From an uncultured Gammaproteobacteria bacterium (GTDB taxonomy: Bacteria; Pseudomonadota; Gammaproteobacteria; JABCZS01), in contig CAWKDC010000001.1 in assembly GCA_963848305.1 (NCBI GenBank), positions 768,001-832,000 on the forward strand: 64,000 bases of DNA, read 5' to 3'. The position numbers were made by a program, and so were the translations under genes. This document shows, piece after piece, positions 7,164 to 23,745 of this stretch. The notes below the pieces were generated by a model. The model was not told where the DNA came from, did no database searches, and saw nothing but the letters and a program-made list of their open reading frames with translations. The first letter of the stretch is position 1. The number at the start of each line of letters is the position of its first letter.

Positions 7164-7182
7164 TAGGGGGAAAATTCACCTA
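7164..7182. promoter_or_regulatory. 19-bp palindromic box 1 (TAGGGGGAAAATTCACCTA)
   Basis: Matches the island consensus TAGGGGA-N5-TCCCCTA; TAAGAT -10 at 7204-7209 (21-nt gap). Confidence 0.7.
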
Positions 7183-7249
7183 ATATTTTATCAAAAAATC
7201 AAGTAAGATGCCTGGGTATGATACTTCCATCAAAGAGAGGGCTTCGGCC

Positions 7250-7432
7250 ATGAACTTGCATCCTAATGATTATAATCAGAATATGACGTCTGAAAACACG
7301 TGTCGTACAATGATACTATACAGTAATCCGGATTCAATCATTAAAAATAAACGATATAACGAATATGCTCACTCTAAAAATCAATGCCGTACGATGATTC
7401 TCTATCAAGACCCGATGGGCCGTGCTCAATAA
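7250..7432 (+). CDS. 60-aa peptide with a duplicated CRTMILY motif
   Basis: GAGAGG RBS before ATG 7250; internal repeat with a 28-codon period; the two CRTMILY cores differ only at synonymous positions. Confidence 0.7.
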   Translation: MNLHPNDYNQNMTSENTCRTMILYSNPDSIIKNKRYNEYAHSKNQCRTMILYQDPMGRAQ

Positions 7433-7460
7433 AAATGTGAATAAACCAGGGGACTGGTAT

Positions 7461-7712
7461 ATGAAGCTATTGAACACTCTTCTTGTCTTATCAGGCTTCG
7501 CACTCCTCGGTTCGCTAGGTTCTAAAATAATGCATGACCGAGAACAAACGAACGCTGCAGCAGAAATATTGAACGGTCTCAAAGAACTAACGCATTTAAT
7601 GGATAACATTCGCGAAGAGTGGGATATCTCGTTCACCGAGTTAGAGAACATTTTTAATGAAAACCGTGCTGGTAAAGAATCGTTAAAACGAGAAAATAGG
7701 TCATTATATTAA
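7461..7712 (+). CDS. Small hypothetical protein with an N-terminal hydrophobic helix and a helical C-terminus
   Basis: GGGGA RBS before ATG 7461; MKLLNTLLVLSGFALLGSLG. Confidence 0.55.
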   Translation: MKLLNTLLVLSGFALLGSLGSKIMHDREQTNAAAEILNGLKELTHLMDNIREEWDISFTELENIFNENRAGKESLKRENRSLY

Positions 7713-8240
7713 ATTGATGAGACCTCGCTCAATGGCCTGCATGATAAGCTCTGAGCGTGATTCGCAATGCAATTTTGATTTGACTGTGTCTAAATAATGT
7801 TCCACTGTTTTAGCGGATAATCCCAGTGCATCACCGATTTGTTTCATCGTCATACCCAGTGCAAGGTGTTTTAAGCAGGCTGTTTGTTGTTTGGTGAGTG
7901 GAATCATGGCGCGAGCGCTGACAGGAATAGAAATGCCCTGAACACCCAATACTTTTCCATAACTTCCTATCAACGGAAATTTAATGCTGCGATAAATTTG
8001 AGGATTACCTTTGTATAAACCTCTTTCATAAAAACAATCCATGCTGCGCGTTATCATGATGCGTTGATCATTCTGCATCATTAAAGTACCTACATCAGCC
8101 CATTTGAGATCTAAATCCGTTGTACCAACCAGCTCATTAAGACTATTTAGGTCAGATGCGGCCAAAAAAACGGCATCTCCGAATAAATACTTGCCCTTAT
8201 TATCTTTTGAATAACAGGCTTTGAATGATATATTTGCCAT
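7704..8240 (-). CDS. PAS-domain + LuxR-type HTH transcriptional regulator (copy 1)
   Basis: N-terminal PAS-like region (YSKDNKGKYL...LVGTTDLDLKWA...KFPLIGSYGKVLGVQGIS); C-terminal LTKQQTACLKHLALGMTMKQIGDALGLSAKTVEHY. Start moved to ATG 8240 because of a GGAG RBS and the promoter position. Confidence 0.9.
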   Translation of the reverse strand: MANISFKACYSKDNKGKYLFGDAVFLAASDLNSLNELVGTTDLDLKWADVGTLMMQNDQRIMITRSMDCFYERGLYKGNPQIYRSIKFPLIGSYGKVLGVQGISIPVSARAMIPLTKQQTACLKHLALGMTMKQIGDALGLSAKTVEHYLDTVKSKLHCESRSELIMQAIERGLINLI

Positions 8241-8270
8241 CGTTGCGCTCCGCTGACCAGACACTTGAAC

Positions 8271-8299
8271 AGTGTACCAGAGTGGATGAAAGATGTCAA
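8271..8299 (-). promoter_or_regulatory. Sigma70 promoter of PAS-LuxR copy 1
   Basis: TTGACA-17 nt-TACACT on the minus strand, with TG extension. Confidence 0.75.
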
Positions 8300-8358
8300 A
8301 ATAATATTATATTATGAATCAATAAGATATGCAATGCATTTGGCTGCGCAGCTTATAA

Positions 8359-8377
8359 TAGGGGGGAATCCCCCCTA
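8359..8377. promoter_or_regulatory. 19-bp palindromic box 2 (TAGGGGGGAATCCCCCCTA)
   Basis: Near-perfect palindrome; TAAAAT at 8401-8406 (23-nt gap) before the GNAT gene. Confidence 0.8.
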
Positions 8378-8434
8378 TTTCTCTTTATCCTCATTTTAGA
8401 TAAAATGATGCAAACCGAATCATACTGAAGGCAC

Positions 8435-8916
8435 ATGATGGGCACACAGATTAGAAAAGCGACGATCAATGACAGCGACACTATCCTTACCTTCATCAAA
8501 GAACTGGCTGAGCATGAACAATTGGCACATGCTGTTGTAGGGTTGAGCAAATCCAAAAAACGCTTTTTTGTGACAACCCAAAAGTTGAGGCGCTGATAAT
8601 AGAGGAAGATGGACAGCATGCGGGTTTTGCATTATTCTTCCACAACTATTCTACTTTTTTATGTCGACATGGCATTTATGTTGAAGATATCTATGTGCGT
8701 GAACAATACCGTGGCAAAGGGTACGGTAAATCGTTGTTAAAGCATATTTGCAAATTGGCCATTGAACGTGATTGCGGTCGCGTTGAATGGTGGTGCCTGG
8801 ATTGGAATAAGCCGTCTATCGATTTTTATTTGAGTTTAAATGCTGAGCCGATGACGGATTGGACTGTGTATCGCTTGAATAGAGCGAAATTAGAGGTCCT
8901 TGCTTTGAAGACGTAG
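8435..8916 (+). pseudogene. Spermidine/diamine N-acetyltransferase-like GNAT, frameshifted near 8540
   Basis: MMGTQIRKATINDSDTILTFIKELAEHEQLAHAVV in one frame continues as VEQIQKTLFCDNP...GFALFFHNYSTFL...EDIYVREQYRGKGYG...EWWCLDWN in another frame. Confidence 0.8.
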
Positions 8917-9339
8917 ATATTATTGTATTTCTGTACAAATACATCAATATTAATCCAACAAGCACGCAAGCCAATAAAGTCAAAAGAACAATGCTGTTGT
9001 CATGAGCATTTTCACTGATTTTGGACGAATTGTTGCTTGAAAAGCTCTCGATCCCCATGTCATCATTCGAATGATGATCAATGTTCTTCTCATCTGATTT
9101 TTTGATAGCAAAACCAATGCTAACTAATACCCCAATCCATAATATAATGACACCCAAAATTATTGCGGCATTTTGTTCATTTCATAATCTGAAACTTTCT
9201 CGCTTTTATCTTGATCATCTATAGATTGCCTATTTTCATCTTCATCATGAATGGTGCTCACATATCCCGCCGGGCTTGGACTTCGCCACCAATGCGTATG
9301 TGTATCAAATGGCATGACATCACCGGTTTCAAAATACAT
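8816..9339 (-). CDS. Hypothetical 2-TM membrane protein, apparently split by a 1-nt homopolymer deletion near 9181
   Basis: GAGGAGAGG RBS before ATG 9339 (MYFETGDV...). Adding one A at TATGAAATG joins it to the tracked ORF 8816-9157. Confidence 0.5.
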
Positions 9340-9387
9340 ATCCTCTCCTCAGCAAAATATTCAGGCTCATGAAGCATGATCTCTTCA

Positions 9388-10209
9388 TTACTTATTGTGA
9401 TTCCTATTTAAAGTCGAAGCTGTCGAACGAGATGATTCCTCATCCGACCAAAACATTGAAAGGGATTCTTCAGTCGCCCAATAGTGACATGAACCTTCTG
9501 GATGAGTCAACAAAGTATTTGAAAATTGCTTGATTGACTCGAGTCTTGCTGATCTACAATCCATACCCGAAGCTCGCAAACCGGAGTCTATATATGTAAG
9601 CTCAACCGTATTAATGCTATCAAGTTTCTCGATAAACTCTGCATCAACAAACTGCCACGCACCGTCAGCACACTCGATGAAATCGCATGCATGTTCTCTG
9701 ATCATCTTCATGAATTTTAGCGCATTGTCATTGGTACCCTTCCACGGATCCCCAAAGAAACGTTCTATCCATTCATCCGCTTTCTCCTCAGGATATTTGA
9801 CCGTCTTTACCTTGTTACGCGTCATTGCATCAGACAAATTGATGAGAAAATCAATGACCTTATCTTTCAAATGGGCAGGAACTGTTATACCTTTTTGAAC
9901 AGATTCATTGACTCGAAACAAAACAGCATCTTTGAGATATGCTAAAAAAATTGTTCTTGAATCGACACTTGTCTTGCTCCAATTTGTTTTCTGTGCACGG
10001 TTACAATGCCACTGAATGAGTGTTGGTAACGCGTATGTCGCCATTTGAGCACAACATACAAATTGTTTTGAATTAACTACCTCTAATGCCATACTAATAG
10101 AAAATATGGCTGCCTCGGCACCCGGCAATGCAAGCATGTCATTCATTTTACATCTTTCATCAAATGCCTTCTGGCACTCAGCCACTGTTTTATTATGGTC
10201 AATCTTCAT
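9388..10209 (-). CDS. Hypothetical effector-like protein
   Basis: Long ORF; AGGAG RBS before ATG 10209; no recognisable domain; C-terminal EESLSMFWSDEESS... tail. Confidence 0.65.
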   Translation of the reverse strand: MKIDHNKTVAECQKAFDERCKMNDMLALPGAEAAIFSISMALEVVNSKQFVCCAQMATYALPTLIQWHCNRAQKTNWSKTSVDSRTIFLAYLKDAVLFRVNESVQKGITVPAHLKDKVIDFLINLSDAMTRNKVKTVKYPEEKADEWIERFFGDPWKGTNDNALKFMKMIREHACDFIECADGAWQFVDAEFIEKLDSINTVELTYIDSGLRASGMDCRSARLESIKQFSNTLLTHPEGSCHYWATEESLSMFWSDEESSRSTASTLNRNHNK

Positions 10210-10267
10210 GGTGTTTCTCCTGTTCATATTTATTGCTGAATGATATATCATTTTTCTAGTTTTAATA

Positions 10268-10286
10268 TAGGGGATTTAATCCCCTA
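10268..10286. promoter_or_regulatory. 19-bp palindromic box 3 (TAGGGGATTTAATCCCCTA), bidirectional
   Basis: TAAGAT at 10308-10313 on + (21-nt gap) and TATCAT at 10245-10240 on - (22-nt gap), between divergent genes. Confidence 0.85.
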
Positions 10287-10340
10287 TTTTTATTTAAAAT
10301 AATTGTGTAAGATAGCTTTAATTCGCGCGAGGAGTTTACA

Positions 10341-11294
10341 ATGAAAAATCCTGAATTAATGAGGCAGCTTTTTACAGCCATAGATGAAATGGATATGGAT
10401 GAGATTAGTGGTATTATCACAAAAAATAAAGATTTTAACATTAATGAACACAACCCAGATGAAACTTCTGTTTGCACACCCCTGATTGCTTCGATAGAAA
10501 TTAACAGCGAGGAATTATTTTTATATTTACTTAAACATGGGGCAAGCGTTGATATCGCTGATAAAAACAACAGAATGCCACTCTCGTATGCTGCTTCAAT
10601 TGATAATAATGAATATTATGTGAATCGTATTTTAACATTGACCCAAAATGTTAATCACCGTGACAATGATGGAAAAACAGCGTTACATCACGCGGCTTCA
10701 AGAGGTCGTTCAATTATCGACCTCGTCAATTATGGAGCGGATGTCACTATCGCTGATAATGATGGTAATATCCCTTTAGATATTGCTATTCGCTGCAACC
10801 ATAGCAACGTTGTTAGTCAACTTTTTTATTATACTTTGTCATCTGCAAAATTGAATAACCCTAAGGCTTTCCTAGACAAGTATAACAAAAACATAAACCA
10901 AGATGCGGTGATTCTTTTGAATCGTAATTTAATTGCAAACACTAAAGACAGGTTTGACAAAATAAGACTGTTACAAGGTGCATTGTCACAATCCACACCA
11001 TTTGGATGGTATTTAAATAATTTGAAAACAGAGAAGGCGTTTGAAGCGAAAAAACTCCTGCAGTCGAATCTTGGAAAGCTACTCGAAGTAACAGGGTATA
11101 ATCAATTCATAGAAGAACAAAATAAACCCGTAGAGTCTCCTGTATTCAACGCATATCAACCAACGGCTGCACAAACAACTACCGAACAAATCCTAAAGAG
11201 AATGGACGAACAAGATCAGCGGATCCTTGCATTGGAAAATGAAGTGAAGCGGTTATCTGAAAAACAGGGTAACGCAAGCAATTTCTCAATATAA
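10341..11294 (+). CDS. Ankyrin-repeat protein with a C-terminal coiled coil (candidate secreted effector)
   Basis: TPLIASI, MPLSYAA, GKTALHHAA, GNIPLDIA repeats; GAGGAG RBS. Confidence 0.85.
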   Translation: MKNPELMRQLFTAIDEMDMDEISGIITKNKDFNINEHNPDETSVCTPLIASIEINSEELFLYLLKHGASVDIADKNNRMPLSYAASIDNNEYYVNRILTLTQNVNHRDNDGKTALHHAASRGRSIIDLVNYGADVTIADNDGNIPLDIAIRCNHSNVVSQLFYYTLSSAKLNNPKAFLDKYNKNINQDAVILLNRNLIANTKDRFDKIRLLQGALSQSTPFGWYLNNLKTEKAFEAKKLLQSNLGKLLEVTGYNQFIEEQNKPVESPVFNAYQPTAAQTTTEQILKRMDEQDQRILALENEVKRLSEKQGNASNFSI

Positions 11295-11314
11295 TCACAT
11301 ACAGGAGCTACAAC

Positions 11315-11788
11315 ATGTTAAAAGATATCGAAAAGAATCTCATCAAGGCCTTGGCCAAAGATTACGATAAATTAATGAATCGGGAAGATAAACGCAAAAT
11401 ACAAAGTTTTCTGGTAGATCGAATTTACCAACCGTCACCGAGTGCGGTGACGTTTATGGAAAATATTTGTCGCATTATTCATTGTACTACTGTCGAAGCA
11501 GATGGTGAAAATGCTGTTCTTCATGCGCAAAAAACGCGATCACTGTTGGTCGCTCTCACTCAAGAATATCCTGGCGTACGTCAGAATTTAGACTCTATCA
11601 TTGCTAAAGAAAAGAAAACCAGCAATTTTACTGTTAGGCCTGATAGCAGCATGAATTCGTTTATCTGCGCTGCTGTAGCGAATAGCATTCTGGTGGATGC
11701 GCCGCTTATTTTTGATAAAATATATCCTCTGACTGACGATGCCAACAAATTTCTACTCAAGCAGGAAAATATTTATGTGGCAATCTGA
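11315..11788 (+). CDS. Hypothetical protein
   Basis: 157-aa ORF, AGGAG RBS, co-oriented with the ankyrin gene. Confidence 0.65.
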   Translation: MLKDIEKNLIKALAKDYDKLMNREDKRKIQSFLVDRIYQPSPSAVTFMENICRIIHCTTVEADGENAVLHAQKTRSLLVALTQEYPGVRQNLDSIIAKEKKTSNFTVRPDSSMNSFICAAVANSILVDAPLIFDKIYPLTDDANKFLLKQENIYVAI

Positions 11789-12803
11789 CGAAATAGAAAG
11801 TTTATCTCTTGATGAGTTTATTGAAAGCAGAAAACTCCTCACGCGCTCAACAGACACGCATCTCACTGATCGCGTACAAATCAGGTTGGAATTACAAAAC
11901 AATGCCATTCATGAGAATACACTCATCAAATCAATTGTCATTACAAAATATGATCTCAGATCAGATTATCATTTTTTCATTCATGCAATAGATGAGAAGG
12001 CTTTTGATGAACTTCAAAAACGGATGGGGCCATCGCATTTCTGGGAATATGACAATCATTCAAGGAAATTTTCACGAATATGTCTTGTCACGCAAGACAA
12101 CAAGCTTATTGCATTCATGTTCAATAAGATCATTCAGATTGAAAAGTGCTTTGAAAAAGATTTGCCTAAAGTATCTTCTACTATTGGGTTCTCTACAACA
12201 GATGCATACGAACAAGCACCCGAATGGATTCAAGTGGGTAATTTTAATAAAGCCATTTATCATGCAAAAGGCATCGTATCAGAAGTCTCGCATCGATGTA
12301 CAGATACTGATAAGGGCATTCATGAAATATCCTTAACCAGACTCATCTATTCTCAATTTGCATTGAGAATAACAGTGAAGTCCCTTAAAGAGCATGAAAT
12401 GCTTGAATCACTGCTCGGAAAACCAGAACATACTACTCCACCTATTATTATGCTGTACCAATGTCATGGCAAGGATATCCAATTACTCTGCGATAAAATC
12501 AGCACATTTACCCAATACTTTCAAATCAAACCAATTGGCGACACATTGATTGCTTCTATCAAAAGCTCCATGGAAACTATTGATGAAGTACAACAACGTG
12601 TTCAACCATCACTCCATAAAACACATGCTGAATTGGCTGCGGAGACTGCTGAATTTCTTAAAACTGTCTACGGTGGGCCAAGCACCCTCATCCCACAATT
12701 TTTCCGTGCCCCCGCAGCTGTTGGACGTCAACATATTCTTAGCGTGGAAAAGGTGATGAATAATATTCATGGATCATCAGGCAATAAAATGGAGAAAAAA
12801 TAA
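11775..12803 (+). CDS. Hypothetical effector-like protein
   Basis: Long ORF; likely start MWQSDE (AGGA upstream); C-terminal PQFF motif. Confidence 0.65.
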   Translation: MWQSDEIESLSLDEFIESRKLLTRSTDTHLTDRVQIRLELQNNAIHENTLIKSIVITKYDLRSDYHFFIHAIDEKAFDELQKRMGPSHFWEYDNHSRKFSRICLVTQDNKLIAFMFNKIIQIEKCFEKDLPKVSSTIGFSTTDAYEQAPEWIQVGNFNKAIYHAKGIVSEVSHRCTDTDKGIHEISLTRLIYSQFALRITVKSLKEHEMLESLLGKPEHTTPPIIMLYQCHGKDIQLLCDKISTFTQYFQIKPIGDTLIASIKSSMETIDEVQQRVQPSLHKTHAELAAETAEFLKTVYGGPSTLIPQFFRAPAAVGRQHILSVEKVMNNIHGSSGNKMEKK

Positions 12804-12811
12804 AAAAGCAC

Positions 12812-13354
12812 CTACAATACGTCAATAAGCCCGCGCTCAATAGCCTGCATGATCAGCTCTGAACGTGAATGACAACGCAATTTTGTTTTGACAGTATCTA
12901 AATAATGTTCAACTGTTTTTTGCGCCAAGCCCAAGTGATCGCCGATTTGTTTGTGTGTATTTCCCAGGGCCAGAAATTTCAAACAAGCAGTTTGTTGTTT
13001 GGTGAGGGAAATCAAGCAACGCTCACCTACAAGCACAGAAACACCATGAATACCAAGCACCTTGCCGGTATTACCAATAATAGGTGCCTTGGTCGCACGA
13101 TAAATCTGAGGTCTGCCTTGATATAAGCATTTTTCATAAAAAATATGGTTTTTGCGTGTTTGCATCACTTGAGCGTCATTACCAAGGTAAATCTGCGCAA
13201 ATTGCGCCCAGGGAAGCTCTGCATCTTTCCGCCCTACGACGTCATCCATCTTGTTTGCGCCAGCGGCAGTTAGCAGATCCTCGTTAATAGCCATATAATA
13301 ACCTGAATCACTCTTGGTGTAGGTCGCATAAAAACTGCTAACTTCCTCAATCAT
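12812..13354 (-). CDS. PAS-domain + LuxR-type HTH transcriptional regulator (copy 2)
   Basis: PAS-like region (YTKSDSGYY...VVGRKDAELPWA...KAPIIGNTGKVLGIHGVS); HTH nearly identical to copy 1; GAGG RBS. Confidence 0.9.
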   Translation of the reverse strand: MIEEVSSFYATYTKSDSGYYMAINEDLLTAAGANKMDDVVGRKDAELPWAQFAQIYLGNDAQVMQTRKNHIFYEKCLYQGRPQIYRATKAPIIGNTGKVLGIHGVSVLVGERCLISLTKQQTACLKFLALGNTHKQIGDHLGLAQKTVEHYLDTVKTKLRCHSRSELIMQAIERGLIDVL

Positions 13355-13384
13355 ATAATATTACCTCAACGCGAATATTTAGCT

Positions 13385-13413
13385 AGTTTACCAAGTCTAT
13401 AGAGTTTTGTCAA
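13385..13413 (-). promoter_or_regulatory. Sigma70 promoter of PAS-LuxR copy 2
   Basis: TTGACA-17 nt-TAAACT on the minus strand, with TG extension. Confidence 0.75.
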
Positions 13414-13448
13414 TAAACAATTTTATCGAATTGCAGAGGAATATGCAC

Positions 13449-13467
13449 TAGGGGAATTGATCCCCTA
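13449..13467. promoter_or_regulatory. 19-bp palindromic box 4 (TAGGGGAATTGATCCCCTA)
   Basis: Consensus match upstream of PAS-LuxR copy 2; no + strand gene follows. Confidence 0.8.
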
Positions 13468-13491
13468 TTACTCATAATTAAAAGAAGGTGC

Positions 13492-13752
13492 AGGCCGCAG
13501 GGCTGTAAGATATTAGCCTGGGGCATTGCCCCAGGTAAATATTAAATGATTAGAAGGAGGGCTGAAGGTACGTCACTTTTTATAGCATGAAGTACGTACC
13601 CGTTGTCATATAATACTAGGATTATCATTCCTTCTTGTCATTTTCTTCTTTCGCACTTTCAGCGCTCAATGCATTCTCTCATACATTTCCCAGGGTGACG
13701 GTTCGCTACGCGCACCTCACCCTGGGCTACAAGCTTAAAGGCCTTGCGGCCT
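13492..13752. mobile_element. Non-coding inverted-repeat element (REP/REPIN- or MITE-like)
   Basis: Ends AGGCCGCAGGGCT and GGCCTTGCGGCCT are inverted (11/13). Internal hairpins CCTGGGGCATTGCCCCAGG and CCCAGGGTGA...TCACCCTGGG. GC-richer than flanks; no ORF. Confidence 0.6.
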
Positions 13753-13791
13753 TAAGTTGAATAGTAACAAGATTTTTGTCATATCTAAATT

Positions 13792-14283
13792 TCATCGTTC
13801 AATACCAATATATATGTCCAATATTGTATTATGAGGGTCAATTGCGCGTTCATCATAGACCTCAAAATCAGCGCGATACACCCTGGTACCTGATAATTCA
13901 TCGGGTGTCATTCCCCAAATTTTTTGCCATAACTGTATGCATACCTGCGGCATTGCGCCTGGACCTGTTGTGAATTTTGAATAAGTTTGCGCAGGGATAG
14001 TCAACGCGACGCAACCTTCTGGCAGATCAGCGAATGACGTCACTTCCTCGCCGATGAAGTAAGTATAATCACCTGTCATATCACTTGCATAATCTGTATA
14101 GACACAAAATGTTTTACCTGGATTCTTCCGTTCAGTTATTTTTGCATTCAACGCTCTAGAAAAATATCTGTGTAAACATTGCCCAATTTTAGCTGTTTCA
14201 GGGTTCATTTCATGGGCATTGTTCGTTCTTTCTGAAATCCCAACCAGCTTAATGTCTTTAAACTCCATTATTTCATGTTTCAT
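13792..14283 (-). CDS. GyrI-like small-molecule-binding (AraC effector-binding/Cass2) protein
   Basis: LVGISERTNN, CVYTDYASDMTGDYTYFIG, RADFEVYDER, DIYIGI. Confidence 0.88.
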   Translation of the reverse strand: MKHEIMEFKDIKLVGISERTNNAHEMNPETAKIGQCLHRYFSRALNAKITERKNPGKTFCVYTDYASDMTGDYTYFIGEEVTSFADLPEGCVALTIPAQTYSKFTTGPGAMPQVCIQLWQKIWGMTPDELSGTRVYRADFEVYDERAIDPHNTILDIYIGIER

Positions 14284-14338
14284 CGCTTTGTCTCCCTCGC
14301 AATCAATTATTTCAAGATTCTATTCGGATTATTCCCTG

Positions 14339-14413
14339 TTGACAACCATACCAGCAACCGCTAAAATCAGTCAACCCTATTCGAGGAACTTCGCCATGAA
14401 AATATCTGCTTAA
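14339..14413 (+). promoter_or_regulatory. Sigma70 promoter plus leader uORF MKISA (14396-14413) upstream of the ABC-F remnant
   Basis: TTGACA-17 nt-TAAAAT at 14339-14367; GAGGA RBS then ATGAAAATATCTGCTTAA. Confidence 0.65.
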
Positions 14414-14457
14414 GTCGCCCTATCAACCATTCCCCTGGTTCACTTAAGAGAGATATC

Positions 14458-14914
14458 ATGCCGCACAAACCCTTTAAAATCAATCAAATCAGCATCTCAT
14501 ATCCGCACAAAATCTGTTTCGAGGACTTCAGCGTGGAAGTCCCTTATGGAAGCCGCATTGCGATTATTGGGCGCAATGGCAGCGGTAAGACAAGCCTGCT
14601 GCGTCTTTTGCGTGATACCGTCAAGGTGCCTGCCGGGTACGTGCCCCAGGTGATTGAGGACTTCGAGAACCAGAATGGTCGCATTCATGTTTTCACAGGC
14701 AATTATGATGATTATATCCGCTAACACACCGAAGCTTTTGATCCTAGATGAAATCACCAATAACCTCGATCTTGAAACAAGACAACATGTGATTGAGGTG
14801 TTGCAAGCTTATCCAGGCGCTATGATAGTGATATCGCATGATGAGGATTTCTTAGAGATGATCAATATCACTGATTATCACGTATGCAACAACCATTCAT
14901 TACTGAAAAAATAG
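14458..14914 (+). pseudogene. Internally deleted ABC-F ATPase
   Basis: Walker A GRNGSGKT and GYVPQ, then the inter-domain FTGNYDDY, then (other frame) second-NBD LLILDEITNNLD...IVISHD. Most of the protein is missing. Confidence 0.8.
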
Positions 14915-14958
14915 CATCTGAAAATATTATTATGGCATCACTTTAACAGGAGTATCTC

Positions 14959-15888
14959 ATGACACACCGCTGGAAACAAACCATCAACATCGACGAAGAC
15001 TTGGTTCGCACTTTATTGCAGTCGCAGTTTTCAATGAATGCATCCCATATTCAATCATTGGATGCTGGCTGGGATAATTCAGTCTATCTCATCGATGATG
15101 AAGTGATTTTCCGTTTCCCACGCCGTGAATTTGCACTGCCATGCATGACACATGAAATTGCGATTCTGCCTTATATTGCTGATCAAGTGCATTTTAAATT
15201 GTCATCGCCACAATGGATTGGACAGCCGTCCGATATCTACCCTTACCCTTTCGCCGGTTACCCGATTTTGCCAGGGAAATCATTATGTGATGTATTCGAC
15301 GATTTGATCGATGATAAGGCTTTCGCAGAAACACTTGCACTTTGGCTCAAGGAATTACATAGAGTGCCCGTACGTGAATCTGATATAACGTTACTGGCAA
15401 ATTCTCAGCAATGGCGATTGGATATTAGCCATCGTATCAAACTTTGCCATGAAAATTTGGAGCAATATGCATCTTATTTTAATGAAGCTGGATTCACTCG
15501 AGAGAACATATTAAAGTCTATTGACAAGATGTCTGAGCTTTCATTTATTGAGCAGAAAAAATGCTATGTTCATGGCGATTTGTACCACCGACATATCATC
15601 GTTGATCCTGCTTCAAGACAACCGACGGGGTTGATTGATTGGGGTGATGTTCATATCAGCGACCCTGGGATTGATATATCTGTGGGGATGATATTCACGC
15701 CTGTCGTCTTTCGACATTTTATTGATGCTTATGGCGGGGTAAGCGAATCCTCGCTCAACATCTTACGACTGAATGGCTTTGCGCACGCCGTGAGCTTTTT
15801 GGCTTATGGGTATGAGCAAAATAGGCCGTCACTCAAGCGCTGGGCAGGGCTGCAATTGAGGAGAACAATCGAGGAATTGGGGGGATAG
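14959..15888 (+). CDS. Aminoglycoside phosphotransferase (APH)-family kinase
   Basis: GWDN, FRFPRR, VHGDLYHRHII and GLIDWGD motifs. Confidence 0.88.
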   Translation: MTHRWKQTINIDEDLVRTLLQSQFSMNASHIQSLDAGWDNSVYLIDDEVIFRFPRREFALPCMTHEIAILPYIADQVHFKLSSPQWIGQPSDIYPYPFAGYPILPGKSLCDVFDDLIDDKAFAETLALWLKELHRVPVRESDITLLANSQQWRLDISHRIKLCHENLEQYASYFNEAGFTRENILKSIDKMSELSFIEQKKCYVHGDLYHRHIIVDPASRQPTGLIDWGDVHISDPGIDISVGMIFTPVVFRHFIDAYGGVSESSLNILRLNGFAHAVSFLAYGYEQNRPSLKRWAGLQLRRTIEELGG

Positions 15889-15904
15889 GGGAAATATCCC
15901 CGTA
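15571..15904 (+). repeat. Direct repeat copy A (APH 3' end plus box)
   Basis: Aligns without gaps to 19258-19591 (offset 3687). Confidence 0.9.
15886..15904. promoter_or_regulatory. 19-bp palindromic box 5 (TAGGGGAAATATCCCCGTA), overlapping the APH stop codon
   Basis: TG-extended TATCAT at 15929-15934 (24-nt gap). Confidence 0.7.
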
Positions 15905-15968
15905 TTGAGTAGCCATATTGATTGCTGGTATCATTGGTCTTGAGCCATTCCACATCGACGAGGTTTCC

Positions 15969-16682
15969 ATGAGCAATCCAGTGAGCAAAAAACACATCGT
16001 TGAATATTATAGAATGGTTACAAATCTTCAAAATGTGATAGCGCTCATGAACTGTGACGTAGATCAGTTACTTCTCACGATGTGGAAAGAATTTCTTAAA
16101 AAGTATTTTTCTGATAATCTACAAAGCGTGGTTCCATCGAAATCACTTGATTCTGAAGAGCAGAAAGCCACTTATTCAATGATATTTGAAAAGCTAAAAA
16201 AAATATCAACTGAATTGAATATTCCGATCCCAAAAGAAAACACAGGTGACAATAAATATGAACGATTAAAATTTGATGTGCTTATCCCAATGGTAAAAAT
16301 TCTTGAACCCATTTGCACTTATGCCCATGCGCCGGTATATGAAGGTGCACGCGGAATGCTGACATATTGGAACCATAAGATGGGCGGGACAGCCGCAAAC
16401 GTCATTGTTTCAGGAGGAATACTTTGCGGCTTATCAGCACTTCCTATCAATGTATTTCACGTTGAGAAGGATTTTCTGAGTGAAACAGCTGTTTTATCTA
16501 TTACATTACCCCTCGTTGCCATATGCTTGGCTAGTTTGTTCGTCCATGCCAATTATATTGATTCTAAACTGGTGAAATATGCCAAGAAGTATGATAACGT
16601 TCCGTGGGGTCTTAAATTTACAGATGAACGGACAGATGCAGAGAAAAAGGAAAACAAATTGGATATCAATTTCATCGTTTAA
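15969..16682 (+). CDS. Hypothetical protein with two C-terminal TM helices
   Basis: GAGG RBS before MSNPVS; hydrophobic pair near the C-terminus. Confidence 0.65.
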   Translation: MSNPVSKKHIVEYYRMVTNLQNVIALMNCDVDQLLLTMWKEFLKKYFSDNLQSVVPSKSLDSEEQKATYSMIFEKLKKISTELNIPIPKENTGDNKYERLKFDVLIPMVKILEPICTYAHAPVYEGARGMLTYWNHKMGGTAANVIVSGGILCGLSALPINVFHVEKDFLSETAVLSITLPLVAICLASLFVHANYIDSKLVKYAKKYDNVPWGLKFTDERTDAEKKENKLDINFIV

Positions 16683-17161
16683 TTATTAATTTTCAGTTTT
16701 TTATTCATTTCTTGTGCTATGTTCACGCCAGCGACAGTCAACGATGAAAATAACAAAAAGCTTTCCGTCAGCGCTGTTGAGACAGTATCAAACATACTAT
16801 GCTCATCATACATAAAAAACAATACAGGAATGCCCACAATGAAAAACTGCATAATAGGCATCAAGAAAAGAGTTGCTTTGAACTCTCCAATCATTCTTTC
16901 CATTTTTTCATCTTTGCTTTTTGCAATTTCCCAAGATTGAGAAATGAATGCCCATAGTATAATATACGACCCCACGGCAGTGGCTACACCAATGATTATT
17001 TTATCTGAAATGTCTGACCTTAAATCGTCACTGCAAATGGCGAGCAAATTGATCATTGTGGATGCCGTCAAACCAAGAAATGCGACAGCTAAAGCAGCAT
17101 TTTCACCATATGAAGATTTAGATTCAGGAGGATGAAAGATGTCATTCAATCTCGATTTCAT
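16679..17161 (-). CDS. Hypothetical 4-TM membrane protein
   Basis: GAGGA RBS before MKSRLN; four hydrophobic segments. Confidence 0.6.
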   Translation of the reverse strand: MKSRLNDIFHPPESKSSYGENAALAVAFLGLTASTMINLLAICSDDLRSDISDKIIIGVATAVGSYIILWAFISQSWEIAKSKDEKMERMIGEFKATLFLMPIMQFFIVGIPVLFFMYDEHSMFDTVSTALTESFLLFSSLTVAGVNIAQEMNKKLKINN

Positions 17162-17218
17162 CAAAGGTTCCTCAGGGCTGTTACCTTTCAATTGTAACAT
17201 CCTGCCTAATGCCTAGAA

Positions 17219-17237
17219 TAGGGTAATTTTTCCCCTA
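17219..17237. promoter_or_regulatory. 19-bp palindromic box 6 (TAGGGTAATTTTTCCCCTA), bidirectional
   Basis: TACGAT at 17259-17264 on + (21-nt gap) and TACAAT at 17196-17191 on - (22-nt gap). Confidence 0.8.
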
Positions 17238-17293
17238 ATATCAGCAAAAGCAATATGGTACGATGAAGAACTTAACATTGAGGAGTCATAACA

Positions 17294-18334
17294 ATGCCAA
17301 GACCCGTCGCTTTATTGGATGTGGATAATACACTGTTATTCGGCCTTGATAATGCCGGAAACAGTATATTAAATCAAAACCTAATCCTCTCGTTACACCA
17401 AAACGCTGTTAAAGACGTGTATTTGTTTACCGACATGACGTTCATGAAATATCTAGTAGAAGAAAGACTCTGGCTTATTTCTAAGCTTCAAGAATACGGA
17501 CTTATAGTTCATGGAGTTGTTACACCCAATGATTTAGCATGGAATATCACCGACGTTGAAAGGCTTGAAGACTTATTATTATCTGATGAATATCAAGGTA
17601 ACGACAAATATCGTGGCCGATTTTATGGAGAACAATTTGAAGAGTTTATTCGAACTCAATCATCTTTATGCACCTCAATATCTACTTACCAACCGAATAA
17701 TACTAAACCAGGAAAAGCGTTTGATGATGCAAAATCAGCATTAAATAATGACGAATTCTCAGAATATTTTTTGGTTAAAAGCACCATTACAAAAGCTTTC
17801 GGTGATCGCCTTGGTGCAAAGCATGGCTACCCCCATACAAAAGGATTAATGCTAGATCTTTTTCTTCACCATAGACCAGACTGGGTCGGCAGTATATTAG
17901 TGGCTGATGACAATAAAGAGGTAATCAGTACGTTCGAAATTGATCCCGTAACCTCACAGACAAAATTCAAACCAGTAGATGCTTCAAAAACGCCCTGTCC
18001 ATTGCTGACATTGATCCCAGTTAAGAATTTGCATCATGACGCACAATATTATGATAATCTCATAAAAGGGCATTTATCAAAGGACGTGCATTTTATTGTG
18101 CGACCTTTCATGCCTACCTTGCTCTTATGCTCTATGGCTGGCGGCGTCATTGTAACTGGAGTCGCATTATTGATCCTCGGTTCTGTGCACCACTTTGACG
18201 CAGAGCAAATGAAGCCTAATGATAATTTCTCCCTGAAATCAGGTTTATTTTTTACGTTCACAGCCTTAATTGGTTGCATCGCCGGCGGGGGTTTAGCTGC
18301 GCGGCAAATGTACAAAGAGAAAAGCACCCTATAA
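17294..18334 (+). CDS. HAD-like (DxDxT) protein with two C-terminal TM helices, effector-like
   Basis: N-terminal ALLDVDNTL; later ILVADD; C-terminal hydrophobic pair. Confidence 0.65.
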   Translation: MPRPVALLDVDNTLLFGLDNAGNSILNQNLILSLHQNAVKDVYLFTDMTFMKYLVEERLWLISKLQEYGLIVHGVVTPNDLAWNITDVERLEDLLLSDEYQGNDKYRGRFYGEQFEEFIRTQSSLCTSISTYQPNNTKPGKAFDDAKSALNNDEFSEYFLVKSTITKAFGDRLGAKHGYPHTKGLMLDLFLHHRPDWVGSILVADDNKEVISTFEIDPVTSQTKFKPVDASKTPCPLLTLIPVKNLHHDAQYYDNLIKGHLSKDVHFIVRPFMPTLLLCSMAGGVIVTGVALLILGSVHHFDAEQMKPNDNFSLKSGLFFTFTALIGCIAGGGLAARQMYKEKSTL

Positions 18335-18394
18335 TGGTCGCATCAGCCAATTTCTGTTATGATTTGGCAATAAACTTGTATCTAGGAGAAACCC

Positions 18395-19225
18395 ATGAAA
18401 ACTCTTGTAAAATATATGCTGACATGCGCCCTGCTCTGCCTCACTGCCATGACATCTATCGCAAATTCTATTGAGGTACAAAGCATGATATCCCACGCAT
18501 CCATTCAACAAAACAATGAACCCAAAGTCCGGACAGAAAACGTCAATCGTCAACGGGAAATTGAAGTAGAAGTCATTGCCTCTGGAAAAGGCGATGCACT
18601 ATTTTTTGTGCCAACACCCCTCACCCCTTTTTATATTGATCCTAATGCCGTCACGCAAAATGCGGAAGGATTGTATGTCTTGAAAGAAGGCTATTTTATC
18701 CCCGATGGTCTTATTCCCACTGAAAAACAAAACAACCCAGCACAATTATCGACTGTACTTGGCCGCGTTTTAACTGTGGTTGATATGCTTAAAAAAGGGA
18801 TTGATGTTACCGTTTTTTGTACAACATCGGATCGCCCGAAAGCGGATGGCAAGTCTGGTCATGTTGAGCCCGCTCATTTCAAAGCATTACAGAAACAGTT
18901 TTCCAATTTACATATCGTCACTATTCCATCAGAAAAATATGCGAGCCTGAAAGACACATTGCCAGCGGCCACTTACTTCTTCAAAGATCAAATTGTCTCT
19001 GTCTATTCACAACAAATCCGCGAAACATTCGACCCAAATCGCAAATGGGGTGTGGATGATCAGAATCGAGCATTCATTGAACAAATGAGAACACTTTGCC
19101 AGTCCACCCAGATTCATTTTCCATTAGACAAGTCGACAAAAACAAATACTCCATTACGTTTGAGCATGATTAACGAGCCCGAACTCACCGACAGAGAAAG
19201 GAAAAAATTTCACTTTTTCGGATAG
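18395..19225 (+). CDS. Hypothetical protein with a signal-peptide-like N-terminus
   Basis: AGGAG RBS; MKTLVKYMLTCALLCLTAMTSIA; ends FHFFG. Confidence 0.65.
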   Translation: MKTLVKYMLTCALLCLTAMTSIANSIEVQSMISHASIQQNNEPKVRTENVNRQREIEVEVIASGKGDALFFVPTPLTPFYIDPNAVTQNAEGLYVLKEGYFIPDGLIPTEKQNNPAQLSTVLGRVLTVVDMLKKGIDVTVFCTTSDRPKADGKSGHVEPAHFKALQKQFSNLHIVTIPSEKYASLKDTLPAATYFFKDQIVSVYSQQIRETFDPNRKWGVDDQNRAFIEQMRTLCQSTQIHFPLDKSTKTNTPLRLSMINEPELTDRERKKFHFFG

Positions 19226-19257
19226 CCACGCGAACATCAATCACTGGAGAATAGAAT

Positions 19258-19575
19258 CATGGAGATTTATATCACCGTCATATCATCGTTGATCCTGCTT
19301 CAAGACAACCAACAGGGTTGATTGATTGGGGTGATGCTCACATCAGCGACCCTGGGATTGATATATCTGTGGGGATGATATTCACGCCTGTCGTCTTTCG
19401 ACATTTTATTGATGCTTATGGCGGGGTAAGCGAATCCTCGCTCAACATCTCACGACTGAATGGCTTTGCGCACGCCGTGAGCTTTTTGGCTTATGCATAT
19501 GAACAAAATAGGCCGTCCCTCAAGCGCTGGGCAGGGCTGCAATTGAAAAGGACGATGGAAGAATTGGGAATATAG
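19258..19575 (+). pseudogene. 5'-truncated duplicate of the APH gene (direct repeat copy B, which extends to 19591)
   Basis: Begins abruptly at HGDLYHRHII; near-identical to 15571-15888. Confidence 0.88.
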
Positions 19576-19591
19576 CGGTATTTTTCCCCTA
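19573..19591. promoter_or_regulatory. 19-bp palindromic box 7 (TAGCGGTATTTTTCCCCTA)
   Basis: TG-extended TATGAT at 19613-19618 (21-nt gap). Confidence 0.72.
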
Positions 19592-19637
19592 GCCTATATA
19601 CACATCAGCTGCTATGATATTCAGTGGAGGACAACGT

Positions 19638-20309
19638 ATGACAACCGCCACTACCCAATACGGTGACACATTTAAACCTGTGTCAAATGGTCACGGCCTC
19701 CATGTCGGAAGCCAGCGGCAGGATGAATTGGACCTCAGCTGTCTTGAGTTCATACGCCAGCGCATTGCCTCAAATCAAATGGTGCATGCCATCGATCTCG
19801 GGGGCGGACTTGGCTTTCATTCCATTGAAATGGCCAAATTGGGCGCCTCTGTCACCATGGTGGATATTGCTGATACCGACACAGAAGAATTTTCGAACAA
19901 TCTCAAGTTTATTCAAAAAAATGTGATGGATTTAACGGAAGCTGATTTAGATTATATTGATGTGCTCTATTCACAGCGCGCGTTGCACTATCTTCCCTAT
20001 CGTGACATACAAAAACTTTTAAATTTTATGTTTAGTCACATGTCGGAAGATAGTGCTATTTTTATTTCAGCGGCAGGGTTGAATGCAGAATATGGTGGAA
20101 CCTATTTAGATCGATCTAAACCCATTGAAAAACGTTTTAATTATTTTTCAGATGATATGCAACAAAAATTCAATGTGTTTCAGAAAATTGTGTTGTATAC
20201 AGAGCAGGATATGAGAACACTCTTGACACAAATTGGATTTTTTGAAGTTTCTGTGTTTTCATCTTCTTTTGGCACTGTTAAAGCCATAGGAAGAAAACAA
20301 CGAAATTGA
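19638..20309 (+). CDS. Class I SAM-dependent methyltransferase
   Basis: AIDLGGGLG motif I, YSQRALHYL; GGAGG RBS before ATG 19638. Confidence 0.8.
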   Translation: MTTATTQYGDTFKPVSNGHGLHVGSQRQDELDLSCLEFIRQRIASNQMVHAIDLGGGLGFHSIEMAKLGASVTMVDIADTDTEEFSNNLKFIQKNVMDLTEADLDYIDVLYSQRALHYLPYRDIQKLLNFMFSHMSEDSAIFISAAGLNAEYGGTYLDRSKPIEKRFNYFSDDMQQKFNVFQKIVLYTEQDMRTLLTQIGFFEVSVFSSSFGTVKAIGRKQRN

Positions 20310-20470
20310 TGAGACGAAATTGAAACAAAGCTAACCGTTAAATCGGCACACAAGGTCGGGGGATTGGGCCCGTTCATTTTATGCGCCTCACGATAAGTTT
20401 TATATATTATACTCTAACTTAGTCGTTTCAGTAAACCATCAGTTTTTAACGCTTTGCAAGGGTTGTGAAT

Positions 20471-20953
20471 ATGAAAAATGAAACAATAGAAATTAAACAG
20501 CTTACTGATTGCCAGGAAGACATTCCTTATTTGGCCAAACTTTGGTATGAAGAAATTTCTCGGCATTGGGACAAGGATGCATCAGTTGAGAAAGCGGCTT
20601 CAATCCTTGTATCACAAGCAAACCATGAAAAATTGCCCATGACATTCGCTGCATTCATCAACGACCAGCCGGTCGGCATGGTATCATTACGCGAAAATGA
20701 TCGCATAGAACCTGCATTAGGTCCGTGGCTTGGTAGCCTGGTTGTCGATCCCGCTTATCGCAACAGAAAAGTAGGTGAAAAACTTATTGATACCATTAAA
20801 CAGCAGGCATTATTGATGGGTTATCGCAAATTATATCTTCTTGTTTTTGGTAAAAACATTCAATCTTGGTATGAACATCTTGGATGGACAATCATGAGGC
20901 AAGACATTTTATTTGAGCATCAAGTATCTGTCATGGAAATTGCGTTAATCTGA
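20471..20953 (+). CDS. GNAT acetyltransferase
   Basis: GPWLGSLVVDPAYRNRKVG acetyl-CoA motif; WYEHLGW. Start could be 20465. Confidence 0.85.
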   Translation: MKNETIEIKQLTDCQEDIPYLAKLWYEEISRHWDKDASVEKAASILVSQANHEKLPMTFAAFINDQPVGMVSLRENDRIEPALGPWLGSLVVDPAYRNRKVGEKLIDTIKQQALLMGYRKLYLLVFGKNIQSWYEHLGWTIMRQDILFEHQVSVMEIALI

Positions 20954-20975
20954 GAAAACTTTGATACGGTTATTA

Positions 20976-20994
20976 ATCCGGAAAATCCCCCCTA
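20976..20994. promoter_or_regulatory. Box 8, degenerate left half (ATCCGGAAAATCCCCCCTA)
   Basis: Right half matches the consensus; TAGAAT at 21018-21023 (23-nt gap) before the ABC exporter. Confidence 0.55.
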
Positions 20995-21050
20995 TTGAAT
21001 TAAACCTTCATTTAAGCTAGAATCATAAACCCAAAACGAGGTCATGAAGC

Positions 21051-22829: not shown

Positions 22830-22911
22830 GTCTAACAACTAACCCAAGCCTATTGACAAGCTTATGAATGTATGTCAGATTACCTCTTTCGCAGTATGTA
22901 AAGAGGCTAAC

Positions 22912-23745
22912 ATGATCAATCCGTTACTCGAATCAACAAAAGCGGGCGATATTCGCCGCGTTGAGCAATTTGTCACCACAGCCACGCAAACACATAAAGA
23001 TCAGGCTCTTCTCGTGGCTACCCAAAAACATGAGTTAGACATTGCTGCGCTCCTGCTTGAACATCATGCCAACGTCGAAGCAAGAAATCCTTTATGCTTT
23101 AACACGTCTCCCCTGATGCACGCCGTGTGTCTTCAGGACAAAGCCATGGTTTCATTACTGCTCAAATACGGAGCCGATATGCAGGCCGAAAATGATGACA
23201 AGAAAAGTGCCATGGCATATGCAGAATCTGCGCGACACAATCCTGTGATGCACGGCACCACAAAGGATTGCGCTGATCATATTTATGGTCTGCTGCTCGG
23301 CAAAGAATATTATGACACATTGTGTATGAGTGAGATGAGCTTCAGTGAATTCACCACATATTTCCAAAAAACAACTTCTCTCAACCATCACATTAAAGTA
23401 GGCATTTATAAGCATGCTTTATCACTGGCAGGCGGATCGGCCGACAATGAATTGTTGATGCTTCAAAAATTGATCGCCGTGAATAACAATAACCAACCCA
23501 AACACCTCTTGTCTCTGTTTATGCGAACACTCGTGTTCAGCCAAGGCGAGGCATTGAATGATTCAGTGACCATTGAACATATCAAGCGGAAAATTGACAC
23601 ACTGCAAAAATCACTGGAAACAGCATCTCCTGAACAAAAAGAGCGGTATTCCTATTTCTGGAAAAGTGAGACAGCCTATCGTGAACGGTTTGCAACAACA
23701 CTCAAACCTATTCAAGGAAACTTAGCCTCTGATGATGTCCTGTAG
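22912..23745 (+). CDS. Ankyrin-repeat protein (candidate effector)
   Basis: ALLVAT...LLEHHANVEA and SPLMHAV...LLKYGAD repeats; GAGG RBS before ATG 22912. Confidence 0.75.
   Translation: MINPLLESTKAGDIRRVEQFVTTATQTHKDQALLVATQKHELDIAALLLEHHANVEARNPLCFNTSPLMHAVCLQDKAMVSLLLKYGADMQAENDDKKSAMAYAESARHNPVMHGTTKDCADHIYGLLLGKEYYDTLCMSEMSFSEFTTYFQKTTSLNHHIKVGIYKHALSLAGGSADNELLMLQKLIAVNNNNQPKHLLSLFMRTLVFSQGEALNDSVTIEHIKRKIDTLQKSLETASPEQKERYSYFWKSETAYRERFATTLKPIQGNLASDDVL

Follow-up and report, generated by a model that had tools for sequence, protein, structure and literature searches.

Candidate operators of two VqmA-like PAS-LuxR regulators in an accessory region of an uncultured gammaproteobacterium

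A 19-bp palindrome, TAGGGGA-N5-TCCCCTA, is repeated seven times around two genes for PAS-LuxR proteins (luxR1 and luxR2) in a 64-kb stretch of DNA from an uncultured Gammaproteobacteria bacterium (assembly GCA_963848305.1, contig CAWKDC010000001.1, positions 768,001 to 832,000). This whole stretch is called the window here, and coordinates refer to it unless a locus is named. On the evidence of the sequence, it is quite likely that the palindromes, or boxes, are operators through which the adjacent PAS-LuxR regulators activate transcription. This is the most likely function of the boxes because regulator and box travel together, the gap from box to -10 hexamer is kept, and the palindrome is nearly identical to that of VqmA, the PAS-LuxR quorum-sensing receptor of Vibrio cholerae and phage VP882. 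An earlier note on this DNA had proposed that the two proteins activate the box-bearing units. Co-occurrence of regulator and box at 9 of 12 loci, the same -10 gap and the match to VqmA operators speak for that proposal, and activation itself is what we infer from them. This kind of system is already known. What appears to be new is a VqmA-like clade outside Vibrio with an operator conserved across distant lineages, and the apparent expansion of this clade into paralogues that would control a multi-promoter, partly bidirectional regulon in an accessory region.

The boxes were located by a pattern search with TAGGGGANNNNNTCCCCTA, allowing up to three mismatches. Two of the seven are perfect (boxes 3 and 4, starting at 10268 and 13449), one has a single mismatch (box 6, 17219) and four have two mismatches (boxes 1, 2, 5 and 7, at 7164, 8359, 15886 and 19573). 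The sole further match in the window at this threshold, at 43185, lies within a coding region. None of 100 dinucleotide shuffles gave eight matches (mean 0.9), and 200 first-order Markov simulations at up to two mismatches gave a mean of 0.05 sites and a maximum of 1, compared to the seven observed. With a position-weight matrix (PWM) made from the window sites and those of related loci, the seven boxes scored 22-29 bits and the best other position in the 64 kb scored 7.3, which agrees with the statement of the earlier note that the other ~45 kb hold no convincing copy. That note had listed eight boxes, and seven of them are full palindromes at the positions where it had placed them. The remaining one, box 8 (20976..20994, ATCCGGAAAATCCCCCCTA), scored 5.2 bits; its right half is good, its left half matches at 3 of 7 positions, and it is a doubtful half-site, not a full palindrome. 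The seven full boxes and the two regulator genes lie in a 17-kb accessory region.

The boxes were also found at a near-constant distance from -10 hexamers, with the gap counted in nt from the box end to the hexamer. On the plus strand, box 1 (7164..7182, TAGGGGGAAAATTCACCTA, PWM 23.4) is followed by TAAGAT at 7204-7209 (gap 21), box 2 (8359..8377, TAGGGGGGAATCCCCCCTA) by TAAAAT at 8401-8406 (gap 23), box 3 (10268..10286, TAGGGGATTTAATCCCCTA, PWM 29.1) by TAAGAT at 10308-10313 (gap 21), box 5 (15886..15904, TAGGGGAAATATCCCCGTA) by TATCAT at 15929-15934 (gap 24), box 6 (17219..17237, TAGGGTAATTTTTCCCCTA) by TACGAT at 17259-17264 (gap 21), box 7 (19573..19591, TAGCGGTATTTTTCCCCTA) by TATGAT at 19613-19618 (gap 21) and box 8 by TAGAAT at 21018-21023 (gap 23). 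All seven of these hexamers had been given in the earlier note. It had also put forward motif enrichment and a fixed -10 spacing as a check on the proposal, and both were seen: seven sites were present versus 0.05 in simulation, and 7 of 8 boxes have a plus-strand TAnnAT 21-24 nt further on, versus a background of 7.6% of island intergenic positions (2% of the window).

Three further -10 hexamers, missed by the earlier note, lie on the minus strand. Box 3 has TATCAT at 10245-10240 and box 6 has TACAAT at 17196-17191, both with a gap of 22, and each is followed by a ribosome-binding site and the ATG of a minus-strand gene (9388-10209 and 16679-17161, respectively). Both boxes are probably bidirectional. 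Box 4 (13449..13467, TAGGGGAATTGATCCCCTA) faces luxR2, with TAAAAT at 13425-13420 (gap 23), followed by a sigma-70-like TTGACA-17-TAAACT promoter (13385..13413, minus strand), a ribosome-binding site and the luxR2 start. This layout suggests positive autoregulation of luxR2. The same arrangement is repeated at a homologous locus (L002, box 9883), where the sigma-70-like motif block is also found upstream of the regulator gene. The count of about nine transcription units in the earlier note can accordingly be restated as up to ten candidate promoters (seven plus-strand, three minus-strand); the GNAT target among them is split and box 8 is doubtful. The earlier note had also reported no good -35 at these promoters. 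This stood for 8 of the 10 box-linked candidates, which lack a -35 that passes a sigma-70 consensus scan. It did not stand for boxes 5 and 8, where -35-like hexamers that the note had missed (TTGAGT and TTGAAT) come directly after the box, 17-18 bp from the -10. As a separate observation, box 3 (10308-10317) and two L002 boxes (near 9800 and 16200) share the sequence TAAGATAGCT from the -10 onward, so that conservation of the promoter core may reach past the hexamer. TAAGAT is also the -10 of box 1.

Next, the two regulators were compared with each other and with known proteins. The luxR1 gene (7704..8240, minus strand, start taken as ATG 8240) encodes 178 aa with a PAS-like region and a GerE/LuxR helix-turn-helix (HTH), and luxR2 (12812..13354, minus strand) encodes 180 aa. 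Pfam models matched PAS_4 and GerE in LuxR2, and GerE in LuxR1 (E 1.9e-13). Upstream of luxR1 is a sigma-70-like promoter, TTGACA-17-TACACT (8271..8299, minus strand), which matches at 10 of 12 positions with a TG before the -10 and is a pattern match only. The two proteins are 56% identical overall, with 78% identity in the DNA-binding domain and 42% in the PAS domain, and LuxR1 is 92% identical over 178 aa to a public relative (P0012). The same contrast is seen across the regulator family, where mean pairwise identity is 73% in the HTH half and 36% in the PAS half. A conserved HTH with a diverged PAS domain fits a single operator read by sensors of different specificity.

VqmA was the closest protein of known structure by both profile and fold. 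In a search of Protein Data Bank sequences with a profile of 20 family members, V. cholerae VqmA came first (6ugl, 6kju and 6ide; E 2.8e-16 for 6ugl), and the 6ugl match covered both domains (34.4 bits for PAS, 27.9 bits for HTH). The VqmA of phage VP882 (7dwm) was next (E 1.6e-13) and was also matched by LuxR2 alone (E 2e-9). Among 50,697 phage records, only two, both of VP882, matched beyond the HTH (78% of the query, 27% identity). The AlphaFold2 model of LuxR2 (mean confidence score, pLDDT, 89.5) has a five-stranded PAS core followed by four helices. When this model was compared with the Protein Data Bank by Foldseek, the top eight matches were all VqmA (E 5e-12 to 9e-11), and the light-oxygen-voltage protein EL222 (LOV-HTH) came next. 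A receptor of the acyl-homoserine lactone type, like TraR or LasR, was considered and rejected, as Pfam found no autoinducer-binding domain and TraR matches over the HTH alone. Short PAS-LuxR proteins made up ~18 of the best 150 matches in a profile search of 1.84 billion proteins, the matches of which were dominated by long multi-PAS sensors; this share does not gauge the size of the family.

The boxes also resemble the operators of VqmA. In one study, the operators are given as AGGGGGGATTTCCCCCCT for PvqmR and TAGGGGGAAAAATACCCT for the phage promoter Pqtip, a GG-N9-CC palindrome is described as the key sequence for phage VP882 VqmA, and V. cholerae and phage VqmA are reported to discriminate their operators through the central bases (PMC8284805). 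The 19-bp box has this GG-N9-CC geometry. Box 2 is near-identical to the PvqmR operator with a centre one base shorter, box 1 resembles the Pqtip operator, and the reverse of box 6 (TAGGGGAAAAATTACCCTA) is likewise close to the published operators. In the genome of VP882, we located the operator between qtip and vqmA, and toward qtip the sequence can be read as having a -10-like AAGAAT after a gap of 21 nt. The likeness extends to other features. In both systems, PAS and a LuxR-type HTH are joined in one cytoplasmic protein, and an operator separates the regulator gene from a target that is transcribed divergently. Autoactivation, which the layout of box 4 suggests for luxR2, is known for the phage protein. 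There are also clear differences in scale and host. VqmA is a single regulator with one small RNA or one antirepressor gene as its target, whereas at least two paralogues, and apparently four in the genome, are present here with up to ten promoters of protein genes. VqmA belongs to Vibrio and a vibriophage, and its homologues are described in a 2019 preprint as restricted to Vibrio and phage VP882, whereas the host of the window is not a Vibrio.

To judge how far regulator and box occur together, related loci were collected from public data, where about 40 relatives of the regulators (140-193 aa) were found, nearly all of them metagenomic. An alignment of 20 family members used as the query gave 12 genome loci; LuxR2 alone as the query for related genome loci found no relative. 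The 12 loci include gammaproteobacterial bins, a Coxiellaceae bin, Legionella feeleii and L. tunisiensis. The palindrome lies within 6 kb of the regulator gene in 9 of them, and 7 of the 8 loci whose match spans both domains carry a box. At up to one mismatch, the loci hold 9 sites in 227,931 bases, versus 0.025 expected. The box spacer is mostly 5 bases, with 6 in both Legionella species and 4 in two bins. A TAnnnT hexamer was found 20-24 nt away on at least one side of 14 of the 15 boxes, exactly 21 nt away for 10 of the 15, and the boxes sit upstream of open reading frames (ORFs). The genes linked to them vary between genomes, with products that include proteins with an F-box or an F-box plus ankyrin repeats, a fusion with a nucleoside hydrolase, a protein of 1838 aa and the regulator itself in additional copies; none of the target genes of the window recurred. 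Two relatives outside the window (P0005 and P0028) are probably on the same genome's contig, which would give this genome at least four paralogues. The description of the system in the earlier note as a self-contained module is, therefore, doubtful.

Several side observations were made at these loci. In one bin, three PAS-LuxR genes adjoin each other (L008, 9217-11258) with boxes at 9131, 11264 and 11898, which shows that the family has expanded locally. Less than 2 kb from a PAS-LuxR gene there is an APH-family phosphotransferase gene in the window (14959-15888), on the Legionella chromosomes of L003 (11202-12083) and L009 (10457-11338) and at L013 (4881-5924); L013 is an L. adelaidensis plasmid, where the APH-family gene is directly upstream of the regulator. 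An island shared with Legionella cannot be claimed from this, since the APH protein of the window is only ~25% identical to the Legionella copies. By ribosomal protein S1, the window host is closest to gammaproteobacterial bins, named relatives reach at most 75% identity, and by that measure it is neither a Legionella nor a Coxiella species; an assignment to Legionellales would be a guess based on gene content.

Taken as a mechanism, the operator reading would work as follows. LuxR1 and LuxR2 would be small cytoplasmic one-component receptors of the VqmA type, with an N-terminal PAS ligand domain and a C-terminal LuxR/GerE HTH, and each would be expressed from the sigma-70-like promoter of its gene. 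Whether ligand-bound or not, a dimer would bind the 19-bp palindrome with one HTH on each TAGGGG half-site. Since the box centre is 31-34 bp upstream of the first base of the -10, the box would be centred at about -43 to -46 if transcription starts ~7 nt past the hexamer, and it would take the place of the missing -35. This position suggests that the bound dimer recruits RNA polymerase as a class II activator. The seven full boxes would serve up to nine promoters, and a tenth would rest on the half-site of box 8. Boxes 3 and 6 would fire both ways, and box 4 would feed back on luxR2. The genes switched on in this manner would be the peptide ORFs and the ankyrin operon, those for membrane and secreted proteins, that for the methyltransferase and perhaps that for the exporter. 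The two paralogues probably recognize one common set of boxes and respond to different small molecules.

Some of the data weigh against this reading. What was observed directly is the boxes and how they are spaced, that they occur together with the regulator family, and that the regulators are homologous to VqmA; from these we infer binding, dimerization, activation, ligand dependence and the start sites. Kinship with VqmA is distant: identity is just 21-27%, the Foldseek TM-scores for the VqmA structures are 0.51-0.54, and the window proteins, at ~180 aa, are ~65 residues shorter than VqmA (238-246 aa). In VqmA, F67, F99 and K101 hold the autoinducer 3,5-dimethylpyrazin-2-ol (DPO), according to the 2019 preprint. 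This triad is not kept among the 20 family members. At the position of K101, the residue that hydrogen-bonds DPO, 19 of 20 have lysine, a further likeness to VqmA. The equivalent of F99 is A, S or T in all 20, and at the F67 position 13 of 20 have an aromatic residue; LuxR2 has Y there and LuxR1 has M. With no aromatic residue at the F99 position and a variable one at F67, the ligand, or the way in which it is bound, probably differs from that of DPO in VqmA. The proteins are better described as VqmA-like than as VqmA, being homologous but without the DPO triad as one defining feature. Three of the 12 loci (L007, L011 and L012) have no convincing box, and neither a box nor any G-rich palindrome was found within 6 kb of two homologues on Legionella plasmids (27-28% identity). 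The promoters at boxes 5 and 8 may need no activator, given their -35-like hexamers, and a site over the -35 could equally serve a repressor.

Repression or silencing by occlusion of the promoter is, therefore, the first alternative to the activator reading, and we regard it as improbable. It would account for boxes that overlap the -35 position, where repressors also bind, and for the way in which boxes 5 and 8 abut TTGAGT and TTGAAT, but 8 of the 10 promoters have no scan-passing -35 to occlude. A 21-nt gap to the -10 that is fixed across distant genomes also fits contact with polymerase, and VqmA, PimM and LexR1 are all activators. It is less probable still that the boxes are cassette boundaries, recombination sites or dispersed repeats whose position upstream of genes is secondary. 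Targets that differ fully between loci while the boxes persist would be expected in that case, and the island does contain a gene with a Cass2 "integron-associated" domain. In addition, a copy of the 3' end of the APH-family gene (19262-19575 vs 15575-15885) loses similarity exactly at box 7 versus box 5. This copy, which precedes box 7, is 95% identical and suggests a rearrangement junction at or beside that box, but crossing-over between repeated promoters would give the same junction. No integrase or recombinase family was found among the island ORFs scanned, and the box does not seem to resemble attC. Promoter function is indicated instead by the fixed -10 gap, by the ribosome-binding site and start codon that follow, by the presence of box and regulator together and by the match to an operator whose crystal complex is solved.

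The least probable explanation is that the palindromes act as RNA hairpins, either intrinsic terminators or 5' stem-loops. Boxes 2 and 3 do pass a terminator-like scan, with a stem followed by T-rich DNA, and boxes 5 and 7 are located where a coding sequence on the plus strand has ended. However, only 2 of 8 boxes pass the scan and both of these lie between divergent gene starts, as five of the eight boxes do (1, 2, 3, 4 and 6), where nothing ends. A -10 located 21 nt downstream would also put the box upstream of the transcript. Covariation on 18 aligned boxes was 0.085 compared to 0.091 for shuffles, 283 of 500 of which reach the observed value, and departures from the palindrome are unpaired cells on one side and not compensatory changes. 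Half-site sequence that is kept without covariation indicates a DNA site and not an RNA stem, as expected for a dimeric DNA-binding protein, and intrinsic terminators were rejected on these grounds. Within the operator reading, a division of labor is also conceivable, although we think it unlikely: LuxR1 would serve the boxes with G5-6 (1, 2 and 8) and LuxR2 those with G4 (3-7). Boxes 1 and 2 flank luxR1 and have runs of five to six G or C, and boxes 3 and 4 flank luxR2 and have runs of four. The published discrimination by V. cholerae and phage VqmA through central bases (PMC8284805) would be a precedent. On the other hand, the HTH domains of LuxR1 and LuxR2 are 78% identical, and with just eight boxes the division may be due to chance.

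The operator reading was also compared with LuxR-type regulators of Legionella. RegK3 (lpg2557) and lpg1946 carry a PAS domain, LexR1 (lpg2524) is a precedent for a LuxR-type activator with a site at the -35 or at a set distance from the -10, and an inverted repeat at a fixed distance from the -10 is typical of LuxR-type sites (PMC13555631). As with RegK3 and LexR1, the regulator genes of the window lie beside their presumed targets in low-GC accessory DNA, the inverted repeat is at a fixed distance upstream of the -10, and the targets include eukaryote-like domains and vary between species. The layout of RegK3, a PAS-LuxR regulator beside targets with a conserved element upstream of the -10, is found here, and homologues with the same box are present in L. 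feeleii and L. tunisiensis (L003 and L009). The described targets of RegK3 are two effector genes, compared to two regulators with up to ten candidate promoters in the window. Membership in the LexR1 family was rejected: LexR1 has no recognizable N-terminal domain, whereas the window proteins have PAS, and its element was mutated at GTC/GAC triplets, unlike TAGGGG (PMC13555631, figure legend). Papers that mention RegK3 yielded no sequence of its element, a full-text search with the half-site strings and LuxR gave nothing on Legionella, and in a listing of papers for VqmA paired with Legionella neither term was found in the titles or abstracts.

Another comparison is with the PAS-LuxR activators of Streptomyces (PimM, PteF and RazD), whose operator CTVGGGAWWTCCCBAG lies in the -35 region (PMC9774167). 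These proteins share the PAS and LuxR HTH architecture and a half-site, CTAGGGA, that is nearly the same. The PimM-type operator is 16 bp, with half-sites 3 bp closer than in the 19-bp box, and it belongs to polyketide clusters in actinomycetes; the likeness is one of description and operator only. No version of the box with a 2-nt spacer was found in the window, and a PimM-type operator was rejected.

If the operator reading is correct, the VqmA receptor family would extend to uncultured gammaproteobacteria and Legionella with an operator conserved almost letter for letter. Scoring 22-29 bits over a background of ~7, this operator would be searchable, so that regulons could be predicted, and candidate host-interaction genes flagged, in genomes and metagenome bins of organisms that cannot be grown. 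It would also raise the question of what the diverged PAS pockets bind, whether a pyrazinone-like signal, a host metabolite or nothing. A link to RegK3, if confirmed, would join the bodies of work on VqmA and Legionella. A broader picture can be offered tentatively, and it may well be wrong. In it, VqmA-like receptors form a wider family through which amoeba-associated or intracellular gammaproteobacteria (Legionella, Coxiellaceae-like) would sense small molecules and switch on effector-like genes. Paralogues would keep the operator and diversify the PAS pocket so that several cues converge, and box and -10 together would be a portable promoter, copied or recombined in front of acquired genes. 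The portable promoter is suggested because the box 5/box 7 duplication junction and the complete turnover of targets between genomes both point that way.

The island that carries the boxes is flanked by a ubiE-like gene on one side and radA on the other, and its GC content is 0.37-0.44, compared to 0.43-0.52 in the downstream housekeeping stretch. It contains two ankyrin-repeat proteins, a methyltransferase, GNAT genes, an ABC exporter, an APH-family kinase and a Cass2/GyrI-like gene, together with eight ORFs without a family match and several broken genes, as judged by Pfam. Candidate targets of box 1 are, on the plus strand, a 60-aa peptide ORF (7250-7432) and a small ORF with a hydrophobic N-terminus (7461-7712), neither with a Pfam family above the cut-off. 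The 60-aa ORF contains CRTMILY twice, each followed by a short polar stretch, and may be a repeated peptide precursor. Box 2 precedes a GNAT acetyltransferase gene (8435-8916, plus strand) that is split over frames and pseudogene-like; other decayed sequences in the island are two ABC ATPase fragments (14458-14914). The candidate targets of box 3 are a 273-aa protein of no known family on the minus strand (9388..10209) and, on the plus strand, an ankyrin-repeat protein (10341-11294) together with two ORFs that belong to no known family (11315-11788 and 11739-12803), the latter of which had no usable match in the Atlas.

Box 5 overlaps the stop codon of the APH-family gene and faces a 237-aa protein of no known family (15969..16682, plus strand). 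Box 6 lies between a 160-aa protein of no known family on the minus strand (16679..17161) and, on the plus strand, a 346-aa protein (17294-18334) and a 276-aa protein with a hydrophobic N-terminus (18395-19225). The 346-aa protein has LDVDNT, a DxDxT motif of the HAD type, at its start and two hydrophobic helices at its end, and it has no Pfam match. Its first Atlas match (0.83), to a cluster with the name "Dot/Icm T4SS effector", is no more than a lead. Box 7 precedes an S-adenosylmethionine-dependent methyltransferase (19638-20309) and possibly also controls a GNAT gene (20471-20953), and box 8 possibly controls the ABC exporter (21051-22829) and an ankyrin-repeat protein (22864-23745), all on the plus strand. 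The island ankyrin proteins match the Dot/Icm AnkY/AnkX models far below cut-off (43 bits vs 600). The earlier note had called some targets effector-like; this is no more than suggested by the ankyrin repeats, the sub-threshold Dot/Icm matches and the single Atlas lead, and as a claim it is weak. A further ankyrin-repeat gene with sub-threshold AnkY/AnkX matches lies outside the island without a box (59772-61511).

Finally, a 320-bp stretch without ORFs was noticed between box 4 and the Cass2-like gene (13468-13790), which as RNA is predicted to fold much better than its shuffles do (z-score -6.75). A search of positions 6-24 kb with Rfam gave nothing at gathering score, and a match to Acido-Lenti-1 at 13491-13535 was taken as chance (26.9 bits vs 37). 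Within the stretch, positions 13646-13743 are 74% like positions 7949-8043 of L002. The stretch could be a small RNA, terminators or a repeat element.

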